DNA from: Raillietiella orientalis
Lineage: Eukaryota
DNA: 64,000 nt
Assembly: GCA_036172245.1 (NCBI GenBank)
Contig: JAYWIR010000037.1
Location: forward strand, 1,302,001 to 1,366,000
Direction: 5' to 3'
In this document: in pieces, positions 1 through 62,890 of the stretch
Layout of the letters: every line of letters starts with the position of its first letter
Numbering within the stretch: the stretch's first letter is position 1
Made by a program: the position numbers and the translations under genes
The notes under the pieces: model-generated
What the model was told of the DNA's origin: nothing
The model's database searches: none
The model's input: the letters and a program-made list of their open reading frames with translations, nothing else

Positions 1-418
1 TTAATTAATGAAAAGCACGAGCAGTAGATGCACAAACACCCGTTAGTGATAGTGAAAAAGATCCTGATTTAGAGTTTATACAAACACCAGATGAAGTAAA
101 TTGTAGTTATATTACTGATATGTTTTCAATTCAAGCCTTATATAGACGTGATTTCGAAATTAATTTTTATGCTGATCATACATATACAATTTTCGTGAAA
201 AATTTTGGAAAATTGAATGATTAGTTGGTGATAAGGATAAACAAATTCGTCAATCAGATAAATATTATACTTATGTTGAAAATATTCGTGGCAAAAAAAA
301 GCAAGAAAAAAATCCCATTTTAACTGAATATAATGCAATGTTAAAATACCATGAAAGTCATTATGTTATTATTGAAAAATGAATAAAAGAAATGAAAAAA
401 GGTGAAGTATCAACATAA
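1..418 (+). pseudogene. Phage Gp15-like tail assembly chaperone (5'-partial, one frameshift near 190)
   Basis: Joined translation ...DEVNCSYITDMFSIQALYRRDFEINFYADHTY/FREKFWKIEWLVGDKDK...YVENIRGKK...EMKKGEVST* (TGA 218-220 and 380-382 read as W; TAA 416-418). It resembles the Gp15 family pattern (Y..D...I.A.F...Y.I.L...W..F...IR) and lies directly upstream of the tape measure. Confidence 0.6.
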
Positions 419-447
419 CGGGAAAAAAAAGAGAAAATAAAACTAAT

Positions 448-714
448 TTAGAACGAAATACCATCACTAGTTACTTCCCCTGTGAAAATATTTGAAAGTT
501 CAGACATTGATGCAAGACTACTTTCAGTGATTGTTCCTTGTTCATTTTGAGCACCACTAGTTCCTGGTTGATTCCCAACAAATACTGCAATTTGCTTTTC
601 TCTATCTTTCACCCTTTGCAGTCTTCCTTTTATTTTGTCATATATGCCACCTTTTTTAGCTCTAGCTTCTATTTTTTTAATTTGATCTAATCTTTCTTGT
701 TTTGTGTTCTTCAC
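448..714 (-). CDS. Hypothetical 88-aa protein (basic N-terminus, acidic tail ending SDGISF)
   Basis: Intact ORF with GTG start and a purine-rich AAGGAAAAGA RBS-like tract upstream; follows the 45-aa ORF as in an operon. Confidence 0.6.
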   Translation of the reverse strand: MKNTKQERLDQIKKIEARAKKGGIYDKIKGRLQRVKDREKQIAVFVGNQPGTSGAQNEQGTITESSLASMSELSNIFTGEVTSDGISF

Positions 715-734
715 GTTTTCTTATTTCTTTTCCT

Positions 735-872
735 TTATTGTTTGTTGTTTCTTCTTTCAACTTTTCATTTTTCAAGTTCTTTATCTGCTTGTGTGAATAT
801 ATCACCTGCAATTGCACTTGGAATTGCTCCAGCTACAATTGCTGCACTTATTAATTCTAAAATCATCATCAT
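735..872 (-). CDS. Small 45-aa protein with hydrophobic N-terminus (code 4)
   Basis: MMMILELISAAIVAGAIPSAIAGDIFTQADKELEKWKVERRNNKQ*. The TGA at 765-767 (minus strand) reads as W. AAAGGA RBS-like motif upstream. Not in the supplied ORF track. Confidence 0.6.
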
Positions 873-1140
873 AGTTATCTATTATCCTTTCATATTAAAT
901 TAGATCTCTTTATAGAGATATAATACCCATGAGGATAATAATATATTTTTTTATTTTTTATTTGTAAAATCTTGATAATAAATAGTTATTATAGATTATA
1001 TTATAGATAACCTTTCACATTTTGTAAAGTAGATTGCTTCTTAATGATTATTTTTTTCTTTTCTACCAGTTAATTCTGCTGCTTGTTGATTTGCATATGT
1101 TCGAGGTTGTTCCCATTTTGTTTTGCATCTTGAAATTATT

Positions 1141-2891
1141 ATAAATTTGGCAAATATAAATATAGAAGTAAAAAAATTAACTGACACTGTTAATCTTGCA
1201 AATCGCAATCTTGCTAATCCAATTTAAATATTGTAAAGATATTGATATTTTAAGAAATAAAATTGTTGAATATAATAAAAACATTGAAAACACAACAAAA
1301 CAAAAACAATAGTTTATTAATAAAATGAATGAATCACAAAAAAATCAAAAAGAATATTTAAATCAAATTAAAAACAACGAAATAGCGCTTAAAAATGATG
1401 AAAAACAAATCAAAAAATTGAATGCAGAATTATCGCAATCACAAAAGAAATTTAATGCAATTCCGCGAGAAATTGAATTTTCCAATTTAACAACTGATAA
1501 ACTTGACCGTTATATAATTAATTTTAATAGTGATCTAAAAGAAACTAATAAACAGCTGACTGAAATAAATGGCGATAAGTCTATTGAACTTTGCGACAAG
1601 TTATCAGATGTAGGTAAAAAATCAAGCACTTATATTACATTGCCTTTAACTGGTATTAAGATTGTTTTAGGAAAAATAACAAAAGATACGATTTTATTTG
1701 CTGAAGAATTAAATAAAACAGCACAAAAAATTAATATTTCAAGTGATAATTTACAAAAATTTAGATTTATTGCTAAAAAAATTGATGCATTTCAACGATT
1801 AGGAATTAATATCAAAATCCTGGTGGAGAATTAAAAAATAGTGAAAGTATTTCTTAGAAGTAAAAAATGCATTATCTCAAATAACAAGTGAAACAGAAAA
1901 AAGTAACATTATTTTTAAAATTTTTGATTATAAGTTAGGTAGTCAAATTGCTCTATTATTATTTAAAAAATAGTTCGGAAACAATAAATATAACTAATAA
2001 TTTTGAAAATCTAACATAGATTTCAAATGAAAATATTGAAAACTCAATAGAATTAAGTAATAAATGGAAAGAATTAACAAAAAAATAACAATACTTAAAA
2101 TTGAATTAGCAATAGGTTTATTCCCCATTTTTGAAAATTTTGTTAAATTTATGGATAATAATTTAGCACTATCCATTAAAAAAATAAATGATACTTTCAA
2201 TTCACTAAGTATGAGTAAAAAAGAATTAAATTTTAAAATTGTAGGTGTATTAACGGTTATGCAACCCACTGTATTAATGTATTAGTATCAATTGGAAGTG
2301 CATTAATAAATGCCATTAATTTATTAAAAACTGCCTTTTTGGGGTTATCATCATCCATGGGACCAATCGGAATAGTAAATAAGTATTATAAGTGCCTTAT
2401 TAGTACCTTTATTAGCCAAAAATAAAGATTTTAAAGAATTATTAAAAGAATGAGAAAATATTTGTAAACAATTATTAATCCCAGTTATTGAAATATGTAA
2501 AAACTTGTTTCAAGCAGTAATGCAATTTTAAAACCAATTTTTACAACCTTTAATGAATTAGCATCTATTTTTGCCAAAATTGGAAAAGCAATTATAACCT
2601 TTCTAATACCTTCGTTTAATTTTTTTATCAAAATTTTAAATAGTATTATATGACTAATAAATAAAGTATCAACAGGACTAAAATATTTAACATTTGTATT
2701 AATAAATGTCCAAATTCCTACATTACCAGAAACCATCATTGCAACAATCAATTCTTAATACAAAAAATATAAATAATAGTGATGCATTTAATAATAATTT
2801 TAATATTTCCAGTAATGTTGACATTGAACAAGCAACAAATGAAATTCTTACACAAATGGGAAATAAAATAAATAGGGGAATTAAAAAATAG
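1141..2891 (+). pseudogene. Phage tail tape measure protein, multiply frameshifted
   Basis: Coiled-coil N-terminus, then KLSDVGKKSSTYITLPL...AEELNKTAQKINISSDNLQKF...AFQRLGINIK/NPGGELKNSES/FLEVKNALSQITSETEKSNIIFKIF, a typical tape-measure core. Amphipathic helices follow (KNKDFKELLKEWENI, TGA 2451), ending NNNFNISSNVDIEQATNEILTQMGNKINRGIKK*. ORFs 1325-1834, 2064-2285 and 2706-2891 are its pieces. Confidence 0.85.
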
Positions 2892-3800
2892 TGAAATAAT
2901 TTTATAATATTTAGAAAATTTAAAATAAAGACAAGTAATGATGAAGTTATTGATTTACAAAACACTAGAGATATACTTACCATTTCTTCTAGTGATATTG
3001 GCATTGGTTCTAATAAGTCTTTTTTAAATGTGAAAAATAACTAACTTTATTTTAGAATCAGTTAAAAATATTAAATGAATTGTCTTTAAAATTACTATTG
3101 ATACATCCTAATTCATATAAAAAATATCGTAATTTTATTGAAAAAATAAAATATGAATTTACTAATTATGAATCATTAAAATTAATTTATGGTATTTAAT
3201 AATAACTATACTGCATAATATTGCGATATGTATGTTAAAAATATAACAAAAAATGAATTAAACCAATTCAGCAATTTAGAGCTTGCTTTTATTTTAGAAC
3301 GAGTTTCGAACTGAAAACAGAAAGTTCAAATTGAATGAGAATTAATTATTGATACAAGTGGTGAAAAAAGATATAACTGTAAATTTGGGGCATTTAAATA
3401 TGAAAGTATTTATGACCAAACAAAGAAAATTAAAAATAATAGTGATTTACCAGCAAAAGGCGAGATAATTATAAATTACCCACCAATAAGTCCGCATATA
3501 AAACTCCTTAAAGATAATAAGGAAATTAGCAAATGTAAAATTTATGAAACAATCGAAGAAAATGAAGCAATTATTATTAATGCAACCATTGAAAATGAAA
3601 AAAATATAAAAATTATTAAAGACAAAAATGACAAAATTTAGCGAGAAATCAGTATTTATGAAAAACAGGACTTTAAATTAAATACATTTGTTACAATACC
3701 ATTAGTAGAATATGAAATCAAATACTTTAATGATTTACCAACATCAAAATTAGCGGCGAGTGTAGAAATAAAATATTATGAAGAATATTTATCAGTATAA
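2892..3800 (+). pseudogene. Phage distal tail protein (Dit), disrupted
   Basis: FRKFKIKTSNDEVIDLQN...; NITKNELNQFSNLELAFILERVSNWKQKVQIEWEL (TGA 3312 and 3336 in frame)...NNSDLPAKGEIII...QDFKLNTFVTIP...VEIKYYEEYLSV* (TAA 3798-3800). Located right after the tape measure; has internal stops and frameshifts. Confidence 0.75.
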
Positions 3801-4100
3801 TTATCTTAATATTAATATTTTTCACAAATTGATTTACATTTTAAAGATAATAGTATTGTTGAAAAATATAATATGTATGAAGACACCTATGTTTTACAAG
3901 TTTCTAAGTTTACATTAAATAAAAATAATACAAATGCTATCATTGGTGTTTCTGCATATATAACTAATGATATTAGTCAAAAAATATGCTTAGGAATAAT
4001 AACATATATCGAAAATATTGAAGGAAATAGATCTTGTATAGTTGTAAACAAATAATCGGAATGTTTGATTTTAAAATATTAGTTAAAAATACTATAAATG
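3801..4100 (+). pseudogene. 5' fragment of the next phage tail/baseplate gene (Tal position), truncated at the junction
   Basis: KDNSIVEKYNMYEDTYVLQVSKFTL...LGIITYIENI.../CKQIIGMFDFKILVKN; follows Dit directly and runs into higher-GC DNA. Confidence 0.55.
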
Positions 4101-5286
4101 AACTTGCTTGGAATGGTTCAAATAAAGTTTTTCCAGAATTCTTATCTGCTCTGTCATAAAGTATGCATCTTTAAGCGTTGTTTTTTCTTTTTTGTTTGGT
4201 TCTTTATTTTTTTCTTTTCTTTTCCGTAGTAAAGGAACAAGAAACTTCAGTAGAAAGCATTTCTTTGTTCCTTCAAAGCTATAAATTCTGACATTAGGAA
4301 TTTTTGTAGATGAGAGAACCACTTCACGTGAGTTATTCCTTGTTAGAATTTTCTATTAAGCTACTGCACTTTCGACTTCAGATGAATTTTCAGTGTTCTG
4401 AGAAAATGAAAATGTTTTCTTTCTTCACCTTACATTTACTTAGCAAAATAAAATACACAGTTTCTCAAGTCTATTGTCTCCTCGATGTTATAATAGGTCG
4501 CTTTGAGTCTTCTGTTTGCTTTCTGATGAGGAAAAAATACAGGTACAGTCTTCGTTTTCTTAGTCTTTGTTTCTTTCTAAAGAAGTGAGAGGAAAGATTT
4601 ATCAAACGGTGAGACAATGGGAAAAATGTTTCCAAAGAGCTGTCTTATTTACTGGACGATCAATTCACAGGGTCCATAACTGGTCAAGTAATTCAAGCAC
4701 ATGAGTGCAATTTCCACGTGGTGAGTTCTCCATGTACTCGTGTCTGGATTCTAAATCTCATATTGTGTCATTATTTAAGCAGTTATTTCTTCTGTAGCTA
4801 AGTGATGCCATTTTGGAACCAACTCATGTTGAAATTGCCACACGTGGTTTAAGGGTGCGTTCATACTGAGCATCTGCACTTCACAGATTCAGCTGAAGGA
4901 ATATGCATCTCTTAGCAACGAGATCCCTTCTCATTTCGTTAGCTGCCTCACAGAGTTTTGAATGATCGAAAATCTAGCCCGAATGTATTACCGAAGACAG
5001 GCCAACAAGCAGTCACGGAAGATGCAATTACCGAGAGATGTAAGGACACCCCTGGAAATAATTTGTCAAATCTCGCGAAGAAGTACTTCATAATGCAGCT
5101 ATAGCTGCTTTCACTCGGGAAATTATTAAGAAGACAAAAGATAACTTCGATTCAGAAAAATGTACATCGCAATCAACTCGTATTTTCCCTCTTAGTCGCC
5201 TTCTCACTTCTAGATAGATGGCTCTCAAATGCCAGTAAAACGTATTCAGGCCTGCGTTTTGTTCATCATTAATCTCTCATGAATTC

Positions 5287-5520
5287 TCATGGCAGAGTAG
5301 GATAAGAGAAGAGTTTCCAAGGAAGACGACGCCTTCTTTCATGCACGCTGTATATTTTAATACATGAGATGTCTGGTACACCCATTCCTTGAATTATGGC
5401 AATGGATTTGAATTCTAATATTCTGTGCACTTTCCCATAGCTTCCTAAGTAATCTTCAACCAAATCACCAGCCTTTATAGGAGAGAGTGGCTTAATAAGA
5501 ATAATGAGATACAAAACAGC
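5287..5520 (-). mobile_element. LINE ORF1 (RRM-like) fragment
   Basis: LIKPLSPIKAGDLVEDYLGSYGKVHRI resembles the I..LP....I...L..YG.V pattern and the ORF1 relic near 11.35-11.45 kb (AELKKYGSVY). Confidence 0.35.
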
Positions 5521-6049
5521 ACGCCGTCAGAGTGGAACTTCTCAGGCATACACGAAGGAGGTGAGGAGATAGGAGGAGCGACTTCTCAGAGGAAATGGAT
5601 TCTTAGAATGATGCACCGACAGTTCCCCTCGATGCACCGTGACTCTGAAATGCTGCTGTGGGCAATAAGCCTTCGAAGGTTTTGGGCTTGAACATTTGTA
5701 TTGTACACACTCTGCATAAGTTGAGGAATTCGCCTAACTTTTGCAGCTTGAGATTGGAATTTTTCTGGAATAAACCCTTTCTCTTAAAAGGGCAGTACCA
5801 AAGGCAAAAACTTCAACCATTTGTACTACTCTTACAGCGCAGCGGAATAAGGAAATTTGATGGAAAGCTCTCCGGTAGCTGTAATTCATTTGCATCTCTC
5901 CAATCTCCATTCTTTTCCAAGCAATACTTAACACGTTCAGTGTGGCTGCTGCTGCTTTCTCCTTCCAAGAATCAAGCTAGGCTGGCTTTCCTCACGGAAA
6001 CGAAGTTTCCTCGTCCGTAAGTCTGAAGTTTCAGGCTGCCTCCAAGATG

Positions 6050-8400
6050 AAATCGGGAGTCTCACAAGGCGCACGTGAAGAACTTTTAACCACTTTCGCA
6101 AATTCCGAACGGATCAGTAGGATCAGCTGCAAATGTGGGAAAACGGACCGCTTTTATGGACTCTAGGGGACTTTGCAATGTGCCAACAAAGAGTTGTGAT
6201 CGCTCCCCTAGATAGTTTACTAATCTCACCTTACAAAAGGAGGGAATTTCCACATCAAATTCACTCCGCCTCCTGATCTTCCCCACTTTGAAAGGGCTCC
6301 ATGAGATCACTTACTGGTTGTCACCTGACCCCACAAATGAGGTTCTTGAGGTGATGTTCAAGTGAGGATGCCACATGAGTAATGACCAAAGTGTTCCTAT
6401 CAGTGCCCTTTTCTGGTGACTTGGAGAGAGGTTTATTCCTTGCAAAGAAAGAAACATTGTGTCCTTGAGGAAATATTCACAAAGCTTCTTGGAATTCTTC
6501 AGCTACTCCTACTCCTGACCAGAAGCGTTCACAGTGTTTCAAAAGAAGAAGATACTCCTCTGTAGGTACCGAAGAGCTTTCGGGTCTGAACAAAACAAAA
6601 GTCTAGATGAAGAATCGCTTACAAAGAGTTTTCCGCCTCCTTTCCAGCCTCTGATCACATCTTCCTTGCTTTTTGTGCTCGTGCGTTCCGCATACCAAGC
6701 TCAAGTGAGGACAGGTGCCTTTGTGACAACAGGAAGCTGTGTCCTTTTGCGAGTGTTTCCCAGAAGAGTAGACGTTCTTATCCCACCACGTCCACTCTTC
6801 ATAAAATTCTGGAATTTTCTTGCAGATGGATGTGAATCCCAGAGATTCGTCCTCTCAGCTTCGCAAACTTTGCTCACCGATAACCTGAGAAAATACGAGA
6901 GCTTCACCTCAAAAATCTCATGGATATGGATCAAGTTCCCCTATTAGCAGATGATATGCACCTTCTCAAGTTTCCCTTCGAGGGTTTTTCTCAGCGACCA
7001 GCACTCATTATTTGTTCCAGCTTCTCCCAAAGCGTAATAAACCCTAATGGGAAGTGAAAAGTCCGCATCAGAACTGCAATGCAAGCACGGATTCCTTGGA
7101 AAGAATGTGCAACGTTTAAGGACGGGCCGCTACTGGAAGGCAAGCCTTTAGAAGTAAAAGTCCGAGTCCGCTTTTCAGCTAAAGTCAGCTGCAGCTCAAA
7201 TGGGTGAAGTGAGTGAACGCAATGATTCGTTGACAAACCCTCGAACATCACCATACAGTGTATATGCATTTTCAACCTTCTTCTGTGAACTCTTGATTTC
7301 GCCGAGAGCAAACTTCCCAAGGTGAGTTCTTGGTCAAATTCAATCATTATATCTTCAACACGGCTTCGTCCATCACTCTGCGCGTACCGCACGGTAGCTT
7401 TTGGGTGACCGTCAAAAGAACAGAAAGCAAAAGGAAGCAGCAAACATGCGTCGTATTCGTGCTATGAAGACTCACGAAAAGATAAAGTGATCAAGGAATC
7501 ACTTCGTGCTAATTGTTTGTCAGAGTCTCAGCAATAAGAGTGGATTTCTTCATCACTCTTCGTTGAAATTCTCACCCCAAATTCTGTTCAGTAACTGTCT
7601 GTAGGAACACCACATTTTTCTTTGATGCTGCTGCGCTGCGTTTTCGTGTCGAACTGGATTCGAAGACACCGCTCCTATTGCAGAGTCTCCATTTCAGTTT
7701 CCGAAGGTTTCAATGGAGATTCATGCAGAAGAATTGAATTCATTTTACATGGCAAGTCCCCCCTAAGAGGTCATTTTAGAGTTCTCCATCGGTAATGAAT
7801 GGGTTGGTACATGAAATGATATGGCAGGATCATCTTCAAACCACAGCAAATCATGTGGAGAGGTGCTCAAAAAACTCTGCTTTTCCGTAAAATGGACGCT
7901 GATGCACTCGAATTCTCACACAGATAACCTTCCATACCGTTTGCCTGATGGAACCTATAAGAACTCTTTTCGGTTTGTGAGAACTACTTTAGCTTCAAAA
8001 CGGTTGAGCAAAGTCACATTTTTATTGACGTCGTTTGCAAGTGAGATCACCACTACATGTTTGAGCAGACCATTCTCTAAAGCATGAGGGAGCTTTATGC
8101 TCTTTATGTTTTTTTGCACCCATTGTCACTCAGCTAGTTGAGCTCGATAGTTCCAGCATTCTTTAGTAAAAACAAAGTCCGGAGAAATTCTCAAAGATCC
8201 TTCTGTCCAGCAGTTCCGAAGCTCCACTTTCCCAAAAGTACATCAAGGACCTTCCTGTTAGGGAGACTTGCACAAAAATGGTGTTTACACCGGCAAAAAC
8301 CAACAGTGGGTATGATGCCTTTCCCTATTTTCTGCCAGCATTCTGGACGTTTTTAAAGACTGTCTGTTTTTTCATTGCATCTCATTTGATTGCATTTGAC
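6050..8400 (-). mobile_element. Highly degenerate Ty3/gypsy pol remnant (integrase end clearest)
   Basis: ISWSPFKVGKI (~6300) resembles W.GPFKV. DSHPSARKFQNFMKSGRGGIRTSTLLGNTRKRT (~6750-6850) resembles the SDQG..F...GI....T.YHP..NG integrase core. Upstream RT signals are weak. Confidence 0.4.
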
Positions 8401-9579
8401 TGTCTATTTCTCTGATCATTTATCTGAGAAGACTACAATTCTTTAAGCCGCTACCAAGAAGCAGGGCTCCATTTTGAAATATCTGGAAAACTTTCTTTCC
8501 ACACAAAATGCATACGAAAATGAAAATAAGGTGTCAATTCGCCAAAAATCATTTCCTTTTTTTCGACGAGGGCTTAAGTACTGATCTGAAAAAACAAGCA
8601 GCTGTGAGCGCTAGGCTTGCATCTACAAGGAACTACTGAGCAGCCGCGGCACTGATGCTTCTCTACTAAAAATGTTTATTCTATGGGTCAAGGCAGTAAA
8701 CGTTAGTCAAAAAACTGGTTCATCAGAACCGGTGTGCATTTTCTTGTTTCTCCTTGTCATGTTTCCGTGGATACTGTTAAGTGATCTTGCCAGTCACTTT
8801 GAAGCTCTGATCTTTTTCTGAAGAATTTTCCGCACTGCAACGCTGTTTTTTTATTCCGAAGTTATGGAAAACTGAACAGTAGAAGAGGATTGGATATCAT
8901 CTTAGAATCGGCCCCACTCGGACTGAGCCAATCTTTGTTGAACAAACGTTACATCATTTCTGGTTAGGAACCACTTGTGGACCGACATGGCATTCAACGA
9001 AGGAAATGACGTTCTTAGAGGATTGTGACGCACTGGAAATTATGGAAACATTCTTCATTTGTACAGTTGGAAAATTCAGAGAGCATGGAATTCTTTTGTC
9101 TTTCAGCATGCTTTTAGAAAAATTATTTAAAGGATTTGTCTGCACTGAGGACTTTAGCATGCTTTCAGATGAAACTTGCTCCCTGAAGAAACTTGTGCAG
9201 CCTCTACCGAATTCAAATGAACTTTCACCTAAAATCTGGATCAATCGAAAGCGAAATGCTCGCAAATTTGCCTTCCTGAACCTCCAAGTATCTCAAAATG
9301 ACCACAAAACATTCCGATACTTCTAATAAGACAACTTTGGCCCGTTTCATCCAGCATATTCCTGCTTTCTACTTCTAAGATTTCTTCTGAAATTTCCCAG
9401 CTTTGCTTTTAGCAATTGCACTTATCCTTTAATTTAGATATCGATGTAGACCGTGATTATCAATGTTGACAGTACGTTGGTACACTGAAAATGTACCGCA
9501 GCTACACGGCCTGCATTGAGGACTGTGTGGCTACGGTCTTGTCTTTGCACATATCAGCAAGCGTTGCGGATTCGATTAC

Positions 9580-10275
9580 CCTTAAAGCATCAACACCACT
9601 GGCGATCCCATGCAACGCACGTGTCCACCACTGAAGAAGAGGGAGTGCAGCCCCAGACTGTTCCAGGTGCAGGAAAAGAGAAACCCTTCCCGCACCTGTT
9701 GCTGGATTGTGTTGTCCTCCTGAGCGTCTGGGAACGTTTCACTGTGGTCCTCCCACTCCCGATGGGCAACGGCAGAGAGATTTTGCAATGCCTCTTCACG
9801 CGCGACGGGATGTCGCCTGCAACTTCCCTTGCCGCCCTGTGCTACTCCCGTGGGATCGTGGCGGCGAGAAGCTGCACTGAAAGAGGCCAGGCTAACGCTG
9901 AGGTCATCGCAATCGTCTGCTCTTTCACGAGGAAGGTGACAAGATCTCTGACAACAAAAGGAGAAAGTTGCCAACATCCCCCAGGGAATGCTGAGGACAC
10001 CAGGCAGAAATCTGCGAACCCTTCTCTTCCCCTCACCACCCAACACATTTTTTTAGACTGAACTTTCATGTGTGTGTGTTTTTTCTTTATTTACTCCTTC
10101 CCCCACTTCTCCTGTGCGGACCTCATCGGGAGAGCTGCTCAAGAGAAGCAACGCCTCCGAGGCCTCATTCCCCATCGTGGTGGAGATGTGGAGCCGCTAC
10201 GAAGGAAGACATTTTTTATATGACTGCTTTTCTTGTAGATATTTTTTTACAATAAATGCCTTGGCGTAGCCGGAT
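9580..10275 (+). mobile_element. 5'-truncated L1/Tx1-like LINE 3' end
   Basis: GKEKPFPHLLLDCVVLLSVWERF (C-terminal zinc-binding motif of ORF2), a pyrimidine-rich 3' UTR, and AATAAA at ~10251. Confidence 0.8.
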
Positions 10276-10279
10276 GAAA

Positions 10280-10830
10280 ATGTAGGGTCGATGCCGAGCT
10301 TGAGGGGTGCATCGTGGATTTAGAGTTTCCCCGCAGGTTAACGCTAGTTGGACCACGGGCTTTGGTTGCGGCACTGGAAGAAGCCTGAAGCAGGATGCCT
10401 TCATTGGCTGGCCAGGATTGGGAGTTGACCCTCCAGGGTCCTTACAGGAATTAAGGACCGATGCCTTTCGGGGTTCCCCTCCGTTTGTGCAAATGGAGTC
10501 GTCTAGTCACGCGGACGGGACTCTCCGTCTCGCACCAAGGAGCTGATTGATACTCCCCTCGGAGGTTCGCCTCTCCAGAGTGCCAAGAGCACGCTGATCC
10601 CTTCTGAGAGCGACCCTTCAGAGAAATTTGGAAGCATCCCTTTGGGATTCTCTTCAGAAGAGAAACAAGGAGCGACTCCTTTGCTGGATCCCTCCGAAGA
10701 AGAAATTGCAGGAGCGGATCCTTTCCAGGTTCCTTTCGGAGGAGACATGAGGAGAGGTTCCCTCCGCGGGAATAAGGAAGAGATTCCCACAGGAGACAAC
10801 CATACGATGCGGGCGTGCAATTTTGAATGC
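10280..10830 (-). repeat. GC-rich dispersed repeat homologous to 31300-31900, probably the disordered ORF1 N-terminal region of a LINE
   Basis: GCGGATCCTTTCCAGGTTCCTTTCGGAGGAGA (~10713) vs GCGGATCCTTTCCGGGTTCCCTTCAGAGAAGA (~31800). Minus-strand SPPKGTWKGSA vs SSLKGTRKGSA. Confidence 0.65.
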
Positions 10831-11039
10831 TCTGTCTAGCCTAAAGTTAGAGTCTTTTTCCTTGGTGTTTGTGTAATGGTGCATCGACTGTGTTCGCATG
10901 GCAGGAATGCCTAATAACACCGTGATGGATGTTGGGGAAGAGGAATTCAATTCCACTCCCGAAGTAATGTAAGTGGGAGAGTTCGTCCACTTCTATTGCT
11001 TCGAAAGAATCATCCTCCCCGAGAGCGAGGGAATGGAGT

Positions 11040-12150
11040 GTTGTGGCTGCAACACAGTCAGAGGCAGATATGGCCGAATCAAATGCTTATCAGACCATGG
11101 TCTACAGGCCCTCCCTGTTCTACAAGTTAAGTGGTCTATTTATAGAAAGCACTGAGCACTCCTTTGGGAGGGAGCTGCGCAATTTAAGTGGCCAGGAGGA
11201 AGAATTAAAGGCATTTAAAGCATGTGTCAGCACGTTAAGCTGATCTGCAAAGATGCAGACCTAGCACAATGCATGCTAAAGACCTCAATTACAGTGGAAG
11301 GCCGCAAGATCTTCCCCGTGACGGAGGACTTTTTCGTAGTGGCCTACCTCGAGGACATCACACTACGCATGTCTGAGAACGTGATGCATGCGGAGCTCAA
11401 AAAAATATGGCAGCGTGTACGCGCTATGGACCAAACCAAGCCCCTTCGAAGCTTTGGAAAGCTTTTTAGCAGGCTGGCCGCCACGCGCGTCACGGTGCGT
11501 GAGAACAGCAGGCTCCCCTATAACTGAAGATCGGCAACGGACTCGCCGGTCACTGGTACATGGGGAAACTCCAGTACTGTGGCCACTTTGATGTCACGGG
11601 ACGTTTGAAAAGGCGGTTTCCAAACATCCAGTGCCACCTTTGAGGAAATGAGGGACACATTAGACAAGTGTGCTTGAAAGTGAAACCGCTTGTGATACAC
11701 TTTCGAGCATACAGTGGCACAGAAATCAGGAAAGCACTCGGACTAACCAAGACCGAAATAACAAATGAAGAAAGAACAACATCAGCAGCAAAAGTCGGAA
11801 ACGCAAATTTCCGAAGTAGCTGACACTGAAGGAGACTTATAGCTGGCGGAATCCAAAAAGGAAAAACAACAAGAAAAAAACGGAGAACTTCTCCACCCGT
11901 TAAAAGAAAGCCTGCAGTGCGAAAAAATCCGAAAATGCAAGGTGGTCATCGAGTGCGTCCCGGCAATTGAAGCCGCCACAGTAGGAGGAACCGCTCCCGC
12001 CGACGGGACTCTCGAATGCGAATGCTTCCTACAAGCAGATTTGCACTTGGTGGCGCCGAGCTTTTATTTTACAAAAATAAAACAAAATGGGAACGCAACC
12101 GTGGAGATGGCGAGTTTCCTGTAAGACGACCAAGGGAAGTTCAAGGGAAG
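11040..12150 (+). mobile_element. L1/Tx1-like ORF1 (RRM-like region plus two CCHC zinc knuckles), disrupted
   Basis: VVAYLEDITLRMSENVMHAEL/KKYGSVY..., then YCGHFDVTGRLKRRFPNIQCHL*GNEGHIRQVC. The CX2CX4HX4C knuckle at 11632-11673 has its second Cys mutated to TGA. Confidence 0.7.
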
Positions 12151-13130: not shown

Positions 13131-14230
13131 CGCCAGGGCATTTATTTTTGAAATTCTATAAATAAAATTTTATAATAAAGTCGAAAATGTTTTTCAATCG
13201 TGGTAGAACACTTGGTTCTACCACGCGCGGAGGAGTTGCCAAAAACCGGTACGCAGACAGATGAGGTCAGCACCAACGGCGAAGTGGAAGGGAAAACCAA
13301 AGAAAAATAAACAAAAAAAAAATTGCTAAAAAGGGGAGGAGAGGGCAGGGAAGGGATCACTGATCTCCTGGATTCGTCTGCTGCATCCTGCTCAGAATGC
13401 TGACAAATGCTGCGTCCGAATTACCGAGATGGGGTCATCTTGATACGCAGTCTTCAAAAAGATCGTCGTCCAGTGGATGGCATCCCTACCATTTTCTCCT
13501 CTCATTTTGGCGTTCGAGCATGCCATGATTCCACGTACACAGCAGAGAACTGTTGCGGACGCGGCCGGCTACAGATCAGTACGTCGAATGAAGCTTCGAG
13601 AAAGTACTCCCTCCTGATTTCCTAGGATCGTCAAGAAGTGATTCCAAAGGGATCGAAGGGTGGGGCAGTCCAAGAATAAGTGCGGGAAGGTCTTCCTTTC
13701 GCCGCACTCCGCACAATGGACATTCACACTAACCTGTGCCCAATGAGAGAGGCGTGCTCTGCATGGGATTCCCCAATGAAACAACAGTAACGCCATGTCT
13801 TGCCATTTCAGGGGGAGGGTGCCACTGTCTCAACACGCTGGGGGGCACTTCACCTCCTCCGGAGGGATTCTGAGCAGCTCGCCTCAGAGCAGAATCCCTT
13901 TAAGCGGGACGCTCGGCGTCACAGCGTCCGCTAGCTGCCGACTTGTCCACGCCTTCACAAGATGTTCCCGCCTCTGATAAGGCAGAACACTTTCCACATT
14001 GCCTGTTGGTAGCTCTCACAGCAGCCTGCATGAGTTGGTCACGATCTCCTGCCGGGGCTGTCGAGCGTTCCTTCCTCTCCTGAGGCAGACGTATTCCGCC
14101 TCGTTCGAGCCATGAATCTTTCCTCATGAGGAAACTACTAAAGCGAGGTAGTGCAGTTGGCAAGGAGGCAGGAGATCCAGTTTTCCTAAACCAGGGCAAC
14201 CATCTGAGGCAGCTGATGACCATAATGTCA
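13125..14230 (-). mobile_element. 5'-truncated L1/Tx1-like LINE with complete 3' UTR
   Basis: ALLLFHWGIPCRARLSHWAQVSVNVHCAECGERKTFPHLFLDCPTLRSLW. The UTR starts TGATCCCTTCCC, has a hairpin at 13199-13225, and AATAAA at ~13141-13146 (minus). Confidence 0.85.
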
Positions 14231-14329: not shown

Positions 14330-15650
14330 CGACCTCACCGCAAGGGCGAGGCTTCGAAGTTGGAACTGTTGCTTCATGAGCTCCAGGGTAAGGAGGTCCA
14401 GTCCACGTCCTTGCGTGGAGCGCACAAGTCATTTAAACGGACAGTGGACTTCTCTGTGCCCCACAGGGCTTTCTTTACGAGGCTCTCGGTCCTTTACTTG
14501 ATGTCGGGTGGGGCAGGGAGAACAAAAAGTAGGGGGCAAAGTAGGAGGACCGCGAACGAGTTCCACGCCGCGGTCCGTTCCTGCAAGTAGAACTTGCCGT
14601 TCCGTAACGGGCCGAGCACCATCTCTACTTTTTGGAGACGATCGGACTAGGCTGCTGCTGCGCAGAGTCCCTCAAACAGAGCGCCAAGGTACTTGAAGTA
14701 CCCGCAAGTTGAGATCCCCATGTGGATCAAGTCCGACCGTCCTGCACACGCCGAGACCCGATCGGTGAGATAATCATCGCTTTCAAGAAGCTCAGGAGGC
14801 GGAAAGCAGAGAAAAGCACCAGGGGAGGACGGCCTGCCTGAAGAGTTTTGCCAGTACCTTGCAGCAGAGCTCACTCTTCTGATGCATAAGTTAATTTTCC
14901 TTACCTGGAATGCAGAAGATGTTTCCTCTCCATTCAGATCAGCAAGAGTACGTATCTCCTCCCTAAAGGAGCAGACCTGAGGAAAAGCAGCTGACGTCTG
15001 ATCACCGTGTTGAACGCGGACGCCGACTTGCTGGCGAAACTGAAGCAATTGGGACGGACGGCGTAATACGCAATTAGCCCGAAGCAGACCTACGCTGTTC
15101 CCGGGAGAAGTGTGGATGTCAACCTGTTCTTGGCCGGCACATGGTTTGAGTCACAAAGAGTAGGTAAGGAGATGAAAGGAATTGTCGGCAACCCGAATCT
15201 TGAGGCTCCTGCTGGGCAGGGAAGGAAAACCAGCCGCAGCACTGGCAGCTCTTTGCTACATCTGCGGAGCAATACACAAAGAGGACCATACGAGAGGGAC
15301 GCCATCGAGCATCGCTTTCTACGGATAGCAGCAAGATGGCCCCACCTGGGTGTAATCAAGACCGACCTAGCCAGCAACTTGGAAAGGATGCAGAGGACGC
15401 CCTTCAGCGGACAATGACCCCTTATCAGCCCTCCATTTTTTTCTCGTGTGTGTGTTTTTATTTCATGAACTTTTATATTTCTTTTTGCTTTCCCCTCCCC
15501 TCCGCTACGAAGTGAACCTCGCCGGTCTGAGACCGGCAGCCCGGAAGGTCCATGGACAAAGTAAGTGTGGTAGGACCACGTGTTCCACCACTATCTGTAA
15601 GTCTATTTTGAATTTTAATAAGCTCCCTGGCATGTTCGGGTGAAACCACG
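14330..15650 (+). mobile_element. L1/Tx1-like LINE: endonuclease-RT linker and RT start joined directly to the C-terminus and 3' UTR
   Basis: KAPGEDGLPEEF (~14815), ITVLNADADLLAKL and ISPKQTYAVPGR, then a jump (~15215) to RFLRIAARWPHLG. UTR hairpin at 15567-15591. Confidence 0.8.
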
Positions 15651-26799: not shown

Positions 26800-28000
26800 C
26801 ATTGCAAACTTCTGATGGGTTCTTGCTTGCCGCATTACTCAGGCAGATAACCTGCTACAAGGGTATCGCCTTCCTCCTACTGTTCTTCGGCATCTGCTTT
26901 TAGTTGGATTTGAGAGCATACATGCTGATGCTGGCCAGTCTCTGTCCGTGCACGCCGTCCATGGCCGCCTACGCAGACGACCTGCTTCTCCTGTCCATGT
27001 CCCATTTCCACCCCGGAAACGAGGCTCGAGGACTTCTTCAAGTTAATCCGCCAAGGTACATGCATGAGCGTTAACAGGAAGTGCACGGTCGTACCGGTGG
27101 CTGCGGCGTGGGAGAGTCAAGCCAACTGGATCGCCTAGGGATCTCCACGGGCAGGTAGTTCAAATACGTTGACGTTCTGTCGGGCGACTTTTGCTCGTCA
27201 GAAGCATGGTGGTCCTGCCTTCAAATGGCAGAGATGGCTCTTGGTCAGTTTCTCAACAGCAAGTTTGCTTGCAAGAGCAGGCCTCCATCTGGAACACTTT
27301 TGCTGCTCCCTCTTCGGCTCCCCATTTTTTGTTTGCCCACTCAAACTCGGTGAAGATCCAGGCGCAGCGCATCCTACACAAAGCATTGTGCGGCTCTGGA
27401 TGATTACGGATCCGACTGAAAGACTTGGTGGCGTCGTCGAAGCACGATTAGATCGGACTGCAAGTTCAATTCCAACATCTCTTTCTGTCTGGAAAAATGT
27501 GATCTTCCCATTGTGGTGCGCTCCGGCACGCCATATCCTCCGGCGATGCGCTGGAAGCTCAGCTCTTCTTTCGCTGCTGCCGCGCGACCTACGCTAGAGG
27601 ACCGGAGACCCGCGTCGGAGGTTTTGTGTTTGAGGCTTCCGCGTGTGGTACCATGCGTCGCAGGTTCGGATACTCTGGCTCCTACGGGCGCAAAAGTTTT
27701 AAGTACCTCCCCGGAAAAACTTGCTCCCCTCTCTTCTTGCGTATGTGTACACTTCCGTTTCTCTTTGCAGTCGACAGCAGGACATGATCCTCTTTTTGCA
27801 CTGGGGTCTGCGGTTCAGCAGATGTTGCATCACGTTTGAAAAGGGAGGACGCCTGCAGGGTGTTGCACATGCAAGGCGATCCAAGCTCTCCCACACTTGC
27901 TGAAGACTGAAGGCTTCCGCTGTGCGCGGGAATGTCCCGCATCAGAATTTATAAGTCAGGAGATGCATGCTGACTTCTGGCGCCGCTTCTTTTGGTTACG
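26800..28000 (+). mobile_element. L1/Tx1-like ORF2 fragment containing the RT catalytic core
   Basis: QG../LLFFGICF (~26860), MAAYADDLLLL (YADD at 26970-26981), GRLLLVRSMV, PPAMRWKLSS and RQQDMILFLHWGL. Confidence 0.8.
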
Positions 28001-42399: not shown

Positions 42400-43345
42400 C
42401 CGTCTCTTTAGTCTCGAGATCTATTTATCCTTGGATTTGAAAATTTCACCATCACAAAGAATGACAGGGAGTATCTAGGCAGCGACATCGCTGCAGAATG
42501 GGAGGTTACCATTAAGAGCTCTAGTGCGGAGCGAAAGATAGGGGAATGGAGAACGGGCCAGCTCACGAACGCTGCGACTCCGAGTACCACCCCACACGGA
42601 CTCTTGCGCTGGGACGAGCTACTGGATGTTCCGGAGGAACATCTCAAGTGGCCCCCGATGCTCATGGACTCTCGCATCCTCCCCATGAAGTGGCAACAGT
42701 CGGCACTGCTGGTGTTGCATTGGGGCCTCCCATGCAACGCCCGCCGACATCACTGGACGCGGGGGGGTGTCAACCCTAATTGTGTCAGGTGCGGGGAGAG
42801 GGAATATCTCCCCCACCTGTTAGTGGATTGTGTTGCCCTCCTGCTCCTGTGGAAACGCTTTGCCGCGGCCCTGGGAATCCTCGGAGGCAACCCCAGAGAC
42901 GCTTTACGACCCCTCTTCGTCCGTGACGTCCTGTCGCCAGTGACCTCTCTTGTTGCCTACGCGGGATCGTCGTGGCGTGGAGCAAAGCGACGAGAGGATC
43001 CAGAGACAGGGATGCCACCGTATACGCCGCCCGCTTCCTGAGGATGGCGACGCGATGGCCCCATCTGGAACCACATACTCAGCAACAACTTGCCGGCATC
43101 CTCCAGAGGATGATGGACCCTCCCAGCAGACAGTGATCCCTTCCCGTTCCCTCCCCATTTTTGTTTTGTTTTTTGTTTTCTTTTTGTTTCGTGCCCCCTC
43201 CCCTCTGCTGCCGAGGTCGACCGCTCCGGTCTGCGCACTGAGGACCCAGCATGCTGCCAATTTCTAGGGCGTGGCTGGACTACTGGTCCAGTCACTGGTT
43301 ATAAACAGGTTTGTTCGTAAGAATAAACATCCCGGCGCAACCGAG
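42400..43345 (+). mobile_element. 5'-truncated L1/Tx1-like LINE, best-preserved 3' end
   Basis: WDELLDVPEEHLKWPPMLMDSRILPMKWQQSALLVLHWGLPCNARRHHWTRGGVNPNCVRCGEREYLPHLLVDC and RWPHL. The UTR starts TGATCCCTTCCC, has a hairpin at 43271-43295, and AATAAA at 43322. Confidence 0.9.
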
Positions 43346-46599: not shown

Positions 46600-47100
46600 G
46601 GGTGATCATGAGTTGAGCATGTATTCATTCATTCCTCGTCTTCTTCCTCCTCGCAACTGGAAATCGAGGAGTTGCAAGTGAGAACACTGCCATGACAAGC
46701 CCGTAAAAATGCTATCTGAATGGACCACGAGATGACTGACAGCAAATTCTTCAGCAAAGACGTGAGAATTGCACTGCTTCTGCGAGGGAACCTCACAACG
46801 TCTCAAATCCCCGATCTCTGTGCCAGAAAATCCATATTTTTCATCTGTACCCAAGAGACTGGAGTCACAGTGCTCTCCAAGACACAGCTTTCCTGAAGGA
46901 GGATCTATGAGATCAGCCCAGTAACGTAGCCCAGTATCCCTTGACTGCAAGAACTTCTTGCAGTGTCTATAACCGAACAAATTCTTTTTGTTAATTACTC
47001 AGTTTGTTCAGTCTTTTTGGATTTCCTCTCAATCTTTTTTTTATGAATCACTCGGTTCATTTGCAGCAACAGTAATCTCCTCTTCATTGTGGAAGTAGGA
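46600..47100 (-). mobile_element. Possible hAT transposase remnant
   Basis: GEHCDSSLLGTDEKYGF...WQCSHLQLL resembles HT.E.I...L..W.I...C.AH.LNL. Confidence 0.3.
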
Positions 47101-60699: not shown

Positions 60700-61400
60700 A
60701 TGTTGGAACCAGAGCTCTCTGGTCTTACGCACAGGGCTGATCCTGCTGAATCAGGAAGTTTCGATGGCAAAACTCATGTTCCCGTACACTCGGGTCCCGG
60801 ATCCTCCTGAAAGACTTGGCGGTGCTGTGGGTTGGTTAACTTGACTCTTGAGAAGATCGTACTGCAGGTGCAGTTCCGTCTTCCTTCCCTGTTTGACAAA
60901 TTGGCGGGCCTTCCATTGGGGAGCCGCGTCACGCCACATCCTCCGGCGATGCGCTGGAAGCTCAGGACTTGTTTCGCTGCTGCTGCGCAACCTACGCGAG
61001 AGGGCCGGATTCGGCTACCCCATGAGACATCTGCCCTCACTACTTGCAGGCGTGGATCTCCTGACCCTCCATATAAACCGAAACGCCTGGAGACAGAAGA
61101 CTCTCGGATCCACTTTGCAAGTGCGCCCAGAGGGGCTGAGACAGATGCAGAACCTCCTACACAAACCGCTGGAAGATATCCTGCAGGGTTAGACGCAGTG
61201 GTCCCAGATAGCCGCCACACCCCTTGCCGCAGTACTGCCTGCCCTAATGGCAAGAAATGACAGCAGCCAACCGGCCGGGTGGGAGTTCTGCAGGCTTGCG
61301 GGGGTTGAGAAACTCCTGGACGACTGCAAGACGAGCGAGCTGGCGAACGCCGCCACTCCTCGTTTCCAGCCAATGGGACTGTTTTAGTGAAGTGAACAGC
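60700..61400 (+). mobile_element. L1/Tx1-like ORF2 post-RT fragment
   Basis: PDPPERLGGAV and HPPAMRWKLRTCFAAAAQPT; strong nucleotide similarity to 27405-27610 and 34600-35060. Confidence 0.8.
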
Positions 61401-61404
61401 TTGA

Positions 61405-62890
61405 CTTGACACCAGGTAACGCCGGGGCGTTTATTATAGAGATAATAAACATACATATGTATGCCCATCGGCACTGCATCGTCCGAAAATGTTCGGAACC
61501 TGCCGAGTAACCGGCAAGCCGTCCGGTGAGGTTCTTCTGGGCAGCGGCAGGGGAAGGGGCAAACAAAAATAACAATAAATAAAAATCAATAATAAAAGAA
61601 AACTCTGCGGAACACGGGAAGGGATCACTGTTTACTGGAGAGCGTCCACTGCATCCTTTGCAGGATTCCCGCAAGTTCCATCGGAGTATGCCCCAGCATC
61701 TTGCTGCCGTTAGCAGGAAGCGCAGATGATGCAGACGGCTTCCCTATCGCACCGTCCTCCTCTCGCGTGACTCCAGGCCGCGAGTGTGACAGTTCCACGT
61801 AGGCGAAAAAGAGCTGTTAGGGATGCACGAGACGAATGGGCATCGCTCATGAAAAGGAGCTTCGTCACGTCCCTGGGATAGTCCGTCGGTGCACCAAGGG
61901 CCATTACGTAACGCAAGTACAGGGGCTGGAGAGCAACACTGTCCACAAGCAGGCGAGGGAGGGATTCTCGTTTCCTGCATCTGCAGCTGTTGAGTCCATA
62001 ACCCCTCGGGTCCAGTGAGACCGGCGGGCGTTGCTCAGGAGACCCCAGTGCAACAGTAGAAGTGCCGATTCCTGCCACTTCAAGAGGAGGACCCGGTTGT
62101 TCTTGAGCTCTGGAGGACACTCAAGGTCATCCTGTGAGATTTCCAGCAGCACATCCCAGCTCAATAGCTTTTGTCCTCTGAAGGAAAGGCTGGTAAGCGC
62201 GTCGAGCCAGCCAGAGCACAGAAAGGTCGTTAAAGAGGCTGTGAAGCCCATGCATTCCAGAAGCTCCACATGAAGCTCACGATCGACGCAGTTGAATGCT
62301 TTGGGCAAGTCGACTGCGACCGCACTCCCTCACGACCTTTCCATCCACCACCGGTGGTCTCCCTAGAATTCGGGGTGCCGACCGTATTCATTTACTTTAC
62401 TACTCTGTAACTGAAACCAGATGTTCGCGAGGAACATGCTGGAATCCATACTTCTCCCGGGAACAGCCTAAGTCTGTTTCGGGCTGATCACGGACTCTGC
62501 AACCGTCCTAATCGCTCCGACCACAGTTTCGCCACTAACTTGGCGACCGAGTTCAACACGGTTATCGGACACCAGTTGCTGAAGTTCATTAGGTCTCCTC
62601 CCTTTGGGAGGAGATGCATTCATGCTCATCGTAAGGAGGTGGGAACATCGCCTCTCTTCCGAATCAGCAGCGTTGAGCGCTGCACCAGGAGGAGCAGCTC
62701 CTACGCGAAGCATTAAAATGCTCTACGGGCAGCCCTCCCCTAGCGCCTTCAGCTTCCTGAGCTTCCCGATTGAGGTGATGATTTCACCCATCGTGAAAGG
62801 CTCGTCAAGACATGCTCTCTCCTCCCCTCCGATCTCTGGAGAACCTTCCGGATGCAAGAACTGAGAGATACCCCGCTCCGAAGGTGCCCC
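61405..62890 (-). mobile_element. L1/Tx1-like LINE: RT start joined to C-terminus and 3' UTR (RT core missing)
   Basis: LDEPFTMGEI, VISPKQT*AVPGR and VDLPKAFNCVDR, then a jump (~62165) to WDVLL...KWQESALLLLHWG. The UTR starts GTGATCCCTTCCC; AATAAA at ~61430 (minus). Confidence 0.85.

Follow-up and report, generated by a model that had tools for sequence, protein, structure and literature searches.

The question raised by the window (the whole stretch of DNA analyzed, 64 kb in length) is whether the AT-rich DNA at its start is symbiont prophage DNA inserted into a eukaryotic chromosome, or whether it was joined to the adjacent DNA falsely. The AT-rich start noted in the preliminary description is real: GC content was 21.5–27.7% in the 1-kb bins of positions 1–4000, 34.3% in 4001–5000, and 37.4–54.8% in the 1-kb bins farther on; with 100-nt bins the step was located at 4100–4600. 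The window contains no N at any position, and the AT-rich block runs uninterrupted into eukaryote-type flanking DNA, as had been described. Our reading, held with moderate confidence, is that positions 1 to ~4140 are dead, rearranged, prophage-rich Spiroplasma chromosomal DNA that was inserted into the chromosome of a eukaryote, probably an arthropod, and decayed neutrally.

Positions 1103–4140 were collinear with the genes for the tape measure protein (TMP), the distal tail protein (Dit), and the next tail protein of a multi-copy, siphovirus-type Spiroplasma prophage (Table 1). The reference was an intact copy, locus L005, in which the TMP gene matched phrog_1533 (E 5.9e-29), the Dit gene matched Dit_N (93.3 bits), and the third gene, an ORF at 10568–12085, encodes a 505-aa tail protein matching phrog_7064 (E 3.9e-24). 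Window positions 1103–4132 mapped to L005 7776–10927 in a single order. BLAST identity of 1124–4132 to the Spiroplasma prophage loci was 83–85% at the nucleotide level, and BLAST homology began at L005 7798, 22 nt within the TMP gene. The TMP relic aligned at 85.4% and 89.2% nt identity, with 14 indels (12 of them frame-shifting) and in-frame stops in 5 of 598 codons; a 173-aa piece was 64–73% identical to nine Spiroplasma loci. The preliminary description had named all three tail genes, and here it was borne out. The piece at 1313–1831, translated with code 4, matched tape-measure PHROGs, albeit weakly (E 3.6e-4 and 4.8e-4), and the piece at 2892–3041 matched Pfam Dit_N with 28.3 bits (cut-off 25). 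A further Dit piece (3219–3638) showed 81% aa identity to the L005 protein (E 6e-79), with both TGA-encoded Trp residues lining up; the Dit relic contained three frameshifting indels and in-frame stops in 3 of 286 codons. The next-tail-gene relic was 86.3% identical to L005 (nt), had two frameshifting indels, and was cut mid-gene, homology being lost ~360 nt into the 1518-nt gene. The tail assembly chaperone gene that had also been proposed did not hold up: nothing in the window matched L005 7246–7563, the gene that precedes TMP and occupies the chaperone position.

Table 1. Features of the window from its start to just past the junction.
Positions	Strand	Feature	Basis or remark
1–187	+	Multi-copy Spiroplasma phage gene fragment	83.5% nt identity to OL689226.1
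188–411	+	3' end of the gene just upstream of the terminase gene, siphovirus-type Spiroplasma prophage	83–86% nt identity
412–1123	.	Orphan AT-rich stretch, 28.7% GC	Without database relatives
1103–2895	+	Tape measure protein gene relic	Maps to L005 7776–9684
2904–3800	+	Distal tail protein (Dit) gene relic	Maps to L005 9691–10590
3778–4140	+	Next tail gene, first ~120 codons	Maps to L005 10568–10927
4132–4148	.	Junction, Spiroplasma homology lost	Alignment and BLAST; contains GAATTC at 4136–4141
4177–4229	.	Polypyrimidine (T/C-rich) low-complexity tract	Read directly and also flagged as repeat; ~35 nt past the junction

The tail module had been assigned to 1–4200 as a whole. Tail genes do occupy ~1103–4140, but the first 1.1 kb consists of the three other pieces listed in Table 1. 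The block is pieced together from four or more segments, with breaks at 187/188, 411/412, 1123/1124, and ~4140. The tail module is cut at both ends and otherwise collinear with the intact prophage, ~7.7 kb of whose head genes are absent from the window copy. The part derived from Spiroplasma yielded no host transposon, a point against integration.

The first fragment lies inside a gene of Spiroplasma phage MaM-2019a, obtained from particles of S. poulsonii NSRO (OL689226.1), namely the 1073-aa ORF coming after the portal gene (CDS at locus 5047–8268), with an internal segment of which it shares 83.5% nt identity. This 19-kb phage differs in that neither a tape measure nor a Dit gene is annotated in it, and it leaves the remaining window unmatched. 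The start of the window cuts the fragment on one side, and the other side breaks off at 187–189, where nearly all of the genomic copies likewise stop; there are dozens of these, at 77–87% identity, in genomes G001 and G002 and in other genomes of the genus. The second fragment matched L010 3004–3230 and the sites immediately to the left of L005, L006, and L008 (83–86% nt); relative to L010, aa identity was 73.5% across 68 aa (tblastx). Where the window has the orphan stretch, the intact prophage has ~7.7 kb of packaging, head, and tail-tube genes. This stretch contains an ORF relic on the minus strand at 451–878 with one internal stop. It gave no matches to plasmids and nothing real among 79 scored family genomes (only matches of 21–117 nt at 39–47 bits), and it resembled no other part of the window; a 90-aa piece of it had no relatives in 80 family genomes or in a collection of 5.8 billion proteins.

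From these sequence comparisons, a Spiroplasma phage origin of 1 to ~4140 is well supported, and the Spiroplasma- or Mycoplasma-like Mollicute source proposed earlier holds, the only close relatives found being Spiroplasma prophages. Those of 1124–4132 at 83–85% identity were prophage copies in five Spiroplasma genomes, and of ten loci confirmed in genome_contigs, nine belong to two Spiroplasma endosymbiont genomes. The prophage of the endosymbionts of Antitype chi and Lasioglossum calceatum (OZ026467.1 and OZ026468.1; L002–L010) resembles the window in the order of the TMP, Dit, and tail protein genes, in nucleotide sequence (83–85%), and in the Dit core (81% aa). The window copy differs from it by 17 frameshifts and by lacking the terminase, portal, capsid, and tail tube genes and everything past codon ~120 of the tail protein. 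Antitype chi is a moth and Lasioglossum calceatum a bee, and the Spiroplasma endosymbionts of both carry the prophage in multiple copies. Today the related phage is nearly unchanged (2–5% divergence) among the Spiroplasma of moth and bee. Some part of the window was matched in 19 of the 21 genomes in the GTDB genus of G001, and the tail module in 5; the closest copy among these 21 genomes was 85–87% identical. More distant copies lie on S. citri plasmids, annotated as ‘phage tail tape measure protein’, and in the S. poulsonii NSRO phage. The phage group had been called poorly sampled, which is accurate for phage collections, where neither 50,697 phage records nor IMG/VR yielded a relative, but not for sequenced Spiroplasma genomes, which contain many prophage copies.

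The window copy is heavily decayed. Relative to intact L005, the three tail-gene relics contained 19 indels, 17 of them frameshifting, and in-frame stops at 8 of 990 aligned codons, a count that includes the genes' own terminal stops; the intact controls had one in-frame stop per complete gene. With these frameshifting indels and premature stops, no tail gene is open and translatable, and the longest code-4 ORF is 169 aa. In-frame TGA in the window aligned with Trp in the relatives. Because the block uses code 4, its correct translation in a nucleus was never possible. Frameshifted copies are also present in living Spiroplasma genomes (L007 and L009), and differences by codon position numbered 61/55/86 in the window and 121/73/113 in the Spiroplasma copies, flat spectra not being unique to the window.

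Divergence set the window copy apart from its relatives. It was 12.3–15.8% away from each Spiroplasma copy, whereas those copies were 2–10% apart among themselves, and its terminal branch in the ML tree was 0.25–0.26, compared with 0.01–0.06 for the cluster copies and 0.15 for L026. At sites where all 11 Spiroplasma copies agreed and the window differed, it had G/C for A/T at 123 and the reverse at 44, polarity being unrooted. Changes private to individual Spiroplasma copies, added up across all 11, ran in the opposite direction, 55:83 (Fisher p 3.7e-9 against 123:44), and those of the two most decayed resident copies were 15:36 (towards G/C : towards A/T). The GC content of the window copy was 21.9%, compared with 18.6–19.9% in the 11 copies. 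Because a pseudogene in a living Spiroplasma should drift toward A/T, the asymmetry may point to decay on the host side. It could alternatively reflect a somewhat GC-richer donor lineage or a shift toward A/T on the stem leading to the living copies; with all of the asymmetry placed on that stem at 83:55, 123 of 167 was still an excess (binomial p 1.8e-4).

Nuclear integration is plausible although unproven, and it is the reading toward which we lean. It is favored by the heavy decay, the patchwork structure, and an asymmetry toward G/C where the copies resident in Spiroplasma lean the other way; by the N-free joint to 60 kb of eukaryote-type DNA; and by the position of the window copy as an outlier on a long terminal branch. 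A piece of Spiroplasma chromosome rich in prophage remnants would have entered a chromosome of the host, a eukaryote and probably an arthropod. The patchwork may have formed in the donor chromosome, or fragments may have been end-joined when they integrated, in the manner of NUMTs and Wolbachia insertions. The joint with the flanking eukaryote-type DNA would then be genuine, and the inserted block would have decayed as neutral, functionless DNA, a molecular fossil of past infection.

The alternative that survives best, although we consider it unlikely, is a false join: 4.1 kb from a Spiroplasma of the sequenced animal, or from a plasmid or prophage remnant, would have been attached through chimerism, either of a read or of a clone, or through a mistake of the assembler. 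Across loci BLAST ended at 4091–4132, the alignment placed the end of homology near 4148 at the latest, and 4140–5600 gave only two chance-level matches to five Spiroplasma genomes. The GAATTC within this ~20-nt junction interval is the sole EcoRI site in 1–4141, and its presence there has the look expected from a ligation chimera of an EcoRI-based clone library; given 39 EcoRI sites in 64 kb, the chance of one in the interval is ~1.2%, or ~6% for a site of any among the ten six-cutters checked. The Spiroplasma-like part also sits at the very start of the window, and if that start were the end of the contig, a chimeric end would be easier to imagine. The assembly is the one record of the join to eukaryote-type DNA. 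It has no N or gap there, which speaks against a false join; no bridging read or contig was obtained, which speaks for it. The junction 46-mer had no match in metagenome_contigs, and no junction-crossing contig was present in X1, the sole public run found (share 0.07). X1 did contain 151-nt contigs of low depth identical to the window on both sides, at 3868–4018 and 4460–4610; this is weak evidence against a false join, and X1 may be the source sample, so that its contigs are not independent support. Decayed and rearranged prophage copies abound in the chromosomes of living Spiroplasma (L007, L009, and dozens of fragments), and Spiroplasma is reported to evolve very fast (PMC8208695), so that an unsampled strain could carry a copy diverged by 15%. 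None of the 21 genus genomes, however, has a copy closer than 85–87%, and the window copy exceeds all 11 resident copies in GC and differs from them 123:44 toward G/C, whereas the residents, the decayed ones especially, lean toward A/T.

The flank was scanned against Pfam with the 343 stop-to-stop ORFs of at least 65 aa in 4100–64000; no flank ORF exceeded 255 aa across 60 kb. One ORF matched MMADHC and two matched zf-RVT (below gathering score). The BEL/Pao elements proposed earlier were not recovered, none of the 343 ORFs matching a protease, RT, RNase H, or integrase family, a scan that copies too decayed for 65-aa ORFs would escape. Judged from its sequence, the flank appears to be gene-poor, repeat-rich, eukaryote-type DNA, in which zf-RVT relics of LINE type and a single MMADHC-like exon were recognized. 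The insertion might be genuine but carried by a cobiont eukaryote, such as a parasite or an organism taken as food, or by a scaffold that is unplaced or extrachromosomal, in which case the transfer would have been assigned to the wrong host; the flank does show generic eukaryote features only, but nothing positive points to such a carrier, LINE relics and an MMADHC-like exon would be typical of animal nuclear DNA, and we consider this highly improbable. Equally slight is the chance that the donor was a related Mollicute or other low-GC bacterium sharing this phage, an idea prompted by one distant match (24% aa) in an Erysipelotrichaceae contig and by the orphan stretch without a Spiroplasma match, since every match above 65% nt identity was Spiroplasma and three separate pieces (1–187, 188–411, and 1124–4132) each matched Spiroplasma repeats at 83–87%.

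Transfers of Wolbachia DNA into arthropod chromosomes, WO prophage genes included, are well known. A nuclear insertion in the window would resemble them in that DNA of an endosymbiont, inherited and often rich in prophage, has integrated into host chromosomes and is decaying there; it would differ in that the donor is a Mollicute and the piece is only ~4 kb. Because this donor reads TGA as Trp, expression after transfer is essentially excluded. Transfers from Spiroplasma to a host are almost unrecorded. The one case found in our literature search is that of Ixodes ticks, in which cassettes derived from Spiroplasma ixodetis lie in the nuclear genomes of I. ricinus and I. inopinatus (PMC11617991). 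These cassettes resemble the window block in being pieced Spiroplasma DNA, 70–90% identical to living strains and adjoining or interrupted by host sequence, and in that the assemblies need no free Spiroplasma contig to account for them. There are three differences: the cassettes are reported to match only Ixodetis-clade strains and S. platyhelix (PMC11617991), whereas the window matches a prophage of the genus to which the relatives on S. citri plasmids and in the S. poulsonii phage also belong; they were followed in ten individuals and by RNA-seq, whereas the window is known from one assembly; and the window block is uninterrupted by host sequence.

If the join is an artefact, the 4.1 kb is cobiont DNA to be removed from the assembly. 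We suggest, tentatively, that the block may instead be a true chromosomal fossil of a tailed prophage from the Spiroplasma genus of the S. citri and S. poulsonii relatives; it would then be the first record outside the Ixodetis-clade tick cassettes and would have kept an older, G+C-richer state of the phage. Because its genes are dead and its code is unreadable by the nucleus, there would be no functional consequence. If true, it would be a second, independent case, from another Spiroplasma group, and would mean that Mollicute symbionts leave genomic fossils too. In a host lineage, the block would be the marker of an earlier infection. Its slow evolution could make it a time-stamped outgroup for the rate of Spiroplasma phage evolution, and a slowly changing yardstick for a bacterium that evolves very fast and for the phages of that bacterium.

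No N was present anywhere in the window, and the G+C content changed in a step near 4100–4600. In 1-kb bins it was 27.7% (1–1000), 21.5–23.3% (1001–4000), 34.3% (4001–5000), and 37.4–54.8% in all later bins; in 100-nt bins it was 18–23% up to 4100, 29–35% in 4101–4600, and 36–48% thereafter. The preliminary description, which had about 4.1 kb of AT-rich DNA running into different DNA without a gap, was correct on this point. All open reading frames (ORFs) in the AT-rich left block (1 to ~4140) were short, the longest being 169 aa under code 4, the Mollicute code in which TGA encodes Trp.

The intact reference for gene mapping was L005, a prophage locus in a Spiroplasma genome, in which the gene set is complete and open under code 4. 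Family scans identified its terminase large subunit, portal, protease-capsid fusion, major tail protein, tape measure protein (TMP; phrog_1533, E 5.9e-29), distal tail protein (Dit; Dit_N, 93.3 bits), and a 505-aa tail protein (phrog_7064, E 3.9e-24). Relics of the tape measure, Dit, and next tail genes, all three named in the preliminary description, mapped collinearly onto L005. A chaperone relic had also been proposed there, but nothing in the window matched the gene at the chaperone position (L005 7246–7563).

Direct family scans of the left block gave weak tape-measure matches for code-4 piece 1313–1831 (phrog_167, E 3.6e-4; phrog_4704, E 4.8e-4), a Pfam Dit_N match of 28.3 bits for piece 2892–3041 (curated cut-off 25), and a second, weaker Dit_N match for 3056–3196 (17.3 bits). 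The decisive evidence for a Spiroplasma origin came from relatives. When a 173-aa TMP piece was compared with genome contigs, 10 of 263 candidate stretches were confirmed. Nine of these were in two Spiroplasma endosymbiont genomes at 64–73% aa identity, eight in the endosymbiont of Antitype chi (OZ026467.1) and one in that of Lasioglossum calceatum (OZ026468.1); the tenth was on an Erysipelotrichaceae contig, at 24% aa identity. Alignment of window DNA (1124–1784 plus 1767–4091/4132) to all nine loci gave 83–85% identity. Some part of 1–4150 was matched in 19 of the 21 genomes of the GTDB genus of Spiroplasma genome G001, and the tail module was present in five (G018, G001, G015, G002, and G020); across the 21, identity reached at most 85% for the tail module and 87% for any part of 1–4150. 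S. citri plasmids carried relatives at ~69% nt identity, annotated "phage tail tape measure protein." The phage collection yielded no tblastn match for the TMP or Dit pieces, and the TMP piece had no relative in IMG/VR or JGI metagenomes. On these comparisons a Spiroplasma prophage is well supported as the source of the left block, and the Mollicute-type source proposed earlier was upheld.

Relative to L005, the window copy contained 19 indels, 17 of them frameshifting, and 8 in-frame stops in 990 aligned codons, natural terminal stops counted; intact controls had 1 per complete gene. The best-kept piece (3219–3638) was 81% aa identical to L005 Dit (E 6e-79), and two TGA codons within it aligned with Trp of L005 Dit. 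We therefore conclude that the tail genes are in the Mollicute code and are dead.

Several further features of the living prophages and of the TMP relic were also recorded. In otherwise intact copies the TMP is split into two overlapping ORFs (L005 7776–9227 and 9154–9684; L010, another prophage locus, 8539–9228 and 9155–9685). The overlap is the same in two species and may reflect either a conserved site of frameshifting or a defect that they share. The copies also vary in length, L010 being longer by 156 nt near codon 63. The one tandem repeat in the window, a 45-nt unit in 2.0 copies with 80% matches (1273–1360), falls in the TMP relic, in its coiled-coil region. The siphovirus-type prophage occupies about 10 or more sites in one endosymbiont genome (G002), and its copies in moth and bee symbionts diverge by only 2–5%, which suggests that one active phage recently spread among Spiroplasma of different insect orders. 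The loci covered here were L002–L010 and L022–L025, in genomes G001, G002, G015, and G018.

The tail module had been described as spanning the whole left block, but the first 1.1 kb is a patchwork of other phage fragments and an orphan stretch. Positions 1–187 were 83.5% identical to the interior of a 1073-aa post-portal gene of the S. poulsonii NSRO phage; dozens of copies of this segment occur in Spiroplasma genomes, and in almost all the match ends at 187–189. Positions 188–411 matched the 3' end of the gene that sits just upstream of terminase in the siphovirus-type prophage. Between 411 and 1124, genes for packaging, head, and tail tube that span ~7.7 kb in L005 are absent. The orphan stretch there (412–1123; 28.7% GC) was unmatched in plasmids and elsewhere in the window, and a family-wide DNA search returned only short AT-rich matches of 39–47 bits. 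A 90-aa piece of its ORF relic found nothing in 80 family genomes or, among proteins of near length, in the protein collection.

Features located in the window
Feature	Position	Strand	Basis or remarks
ORF relic in orphan stretch	451–878	minus	~143 codons, one internal stop, hydrophobic N-terminus
TMP relic	1103–2895		L005 mapping
Dit relic	2904–3800		L005 mapping
Tail protein relic, first ~120 codons	3778–~4140		L005 mapping
zf-RVT-like relic	9489–10058	plus	recognised by eye, shared motif in translation
zf-RVT relic	13572–13829	minus	E 3.2e-5
zf-RVT relic	42412–43038	plus	E 8.8e-4
Dispersed repeat pair	13712–13951 / 63007–63246
Dispersed repeat pair	15073–15158 / 62403–62488
Dispersed repeat pair	27514–27606 / 60917–61009

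In the remaining ~60 kb, the flank, no ORF exceeded 255 aa. A Pfam scan of its 343 stop-to-stop ORFs of at least 65 aa gave one match to MMADHC (E 6.5e-9; ORF 46609–46998, minus strand) and two to zf-RVT, both below the gathering score. The three zf-RVT and zf-RVT-like relics all represent, in decayed form, the zinc-binding region at the C terminus of a LINE-type reverse transcriptase, the Pfam support for two being weak and the third recognised by eye. None of the 343 ORFs matched a BEL/Pao-type protease, reverse transcriptase, or integrase family, and the BEL/Pao elements of the preliminary description were not supported. The LINE-like ORF had no relative among 4430 candidates. The few dispersed repeats were 77–86% identical, with two pairs inverted, and probably represent old members of the same retroelement families. 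No Rfam family and no tRNA (ARAGORN) was found in the window. Because of the short ORFs, the MMADHC and zf-RVT matches, the dispersed repeats, and the lack of Rfam families and tRNAs, the flank is eukaryote-type, gene-poor, and repeat-derived. Part of the MMADHC ORF (46753–46923, minus strand) was 44% identical over 57 aa to a 345-aa MMADHC homologue (E 6e-5, a weak lone match); other parts of the protein were not found in the window, and the piece is either one MMADHC-like exon or part of a pseudogene.

Nucleotide homology to the prophages stopped at 4130–4132 in the four furthest-reaching loci, with a possible weak continuation in one alignment (A1) ending by about 4148. As described earlier, the phage DNA thus ends mid-gene, homology being lost ~360 nt into a 1518-nt tail gene. 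Further Spiroplasma DNA past the junction was ruled out: 4140–5600 had only two chance-level matches in five Spiroplasma genomes, and the window beyond 4200 had a single 27-nt match to the prophage loci. No part of 4100–9000 is repeated elsewhere in the window, so the junction yielded no definable transposon.

The substitution pattern bears on where the copy decayed. At 202 sites the 11 resident copies (those in living Spiroplasma) agreed and the window differed; the window had G/C for A/T at 123 and the reverse at 44. Private changes summed over the resident copies were 55:83 (G/C-ward:A/T-ward), and those of the two most decayed were 15:36 (Fisher tests, p 3.7e-9 and 3.4e-8). Taking the G020 copy as the third taxon gave 90:22 for the window branch, and the window copy was 21.9% GC vs. 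18.6–19.9% for the resident copies. The tree is unrooted, and the 123:44 asymmetry may partly sit on the stem leading to the living copies; even wholly on that stem, at a ratio of 83:55, 123 of 167 would be excessive (p 1.8e-4). Spiroplasma evolution is described as very fast in one account (PMC8208695). These data lean toward a window copy not under the Spiroplasma mutation regime. Under either polarity, a heavily decayed copy whose G+C exceeds that of its living relatives is not an expected product of decay inside Spiroplasma (compare L007 and L009, decayed resident copies). The asymmetry could alternatively stem from a donor strain with higher G+C. Flat codon-position spectra (61/55/86 for the window, 121/73/113 for the Spiroplasma copies) do not discriminate and were rejected as demonstrating neutral decay specific to the window, since the resident copies were about as flat. 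A maximum-likelihood tree gave the window a terminal branch of 0.25–0.26 next to prophage locus L024 (support 0.92–0.95); this placement was set aside because it joins the three longest branches.

Overall, the preliminary description was confirmed in part. We regard nuclear integration of the left block, as proposed there, as the best explanation and as reasonably probable. A false join in the assembly is possible but distinctly less probable, and minor rivals share the remainder. One caution is that GAATTC at 4136–4141, the sole EcoRI site of the left block, lies at the junction; the chance of an EcoRI site in a 20-nt interval is ~1.2%, and of any of ten six-cutters checked ~6%. The window holds 39 such sites in 64 kb, by a rough estimate twice the number expected from base composition. 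The one public sequencing run listed (X1; share of words 0.07) consists of low-depth 151-nt contigs and may be the source sample of the assembly. On window 1–12000, 41 X1 records were fitted, 10 at least 99% alike, with contigs identical to 3868–4018 and 4460–4610. A bridge over 4132–4148 was absent among the matches listed (8 of 64 pieces), and such short low-depth contigs are uninformative either way. X1 word depths of 2.6 and 3 were unusable as copy numbers. Five X1 "joints" were treated as spurious, because their sides were only 20–24 nt in AT-rich sequence. The junction 46-mer had no match among metagenome contigs.

The closest precedent is the set of S. ixodetis cassettes described in the nuclear genomes of Ixodes ricinus and I. 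inopinatus, which are reported as 70–90% identical to living strains, as patchworks of up to 26 pieces, and as having matches restricted to Ixodetis-clade strains and S. platyhelix (PMC11617991). A limited literature search found no other Spiroplasma-to-host transfer. Unlike the cassettes as described there, the window matches a prophage of the genus with S. citri-plasmid and S. poulsonii-phage relatives, and it would therefore be an independent case. This kind of event is already known; the insertion, if real, would be a further case, with no function for the inserted genes.
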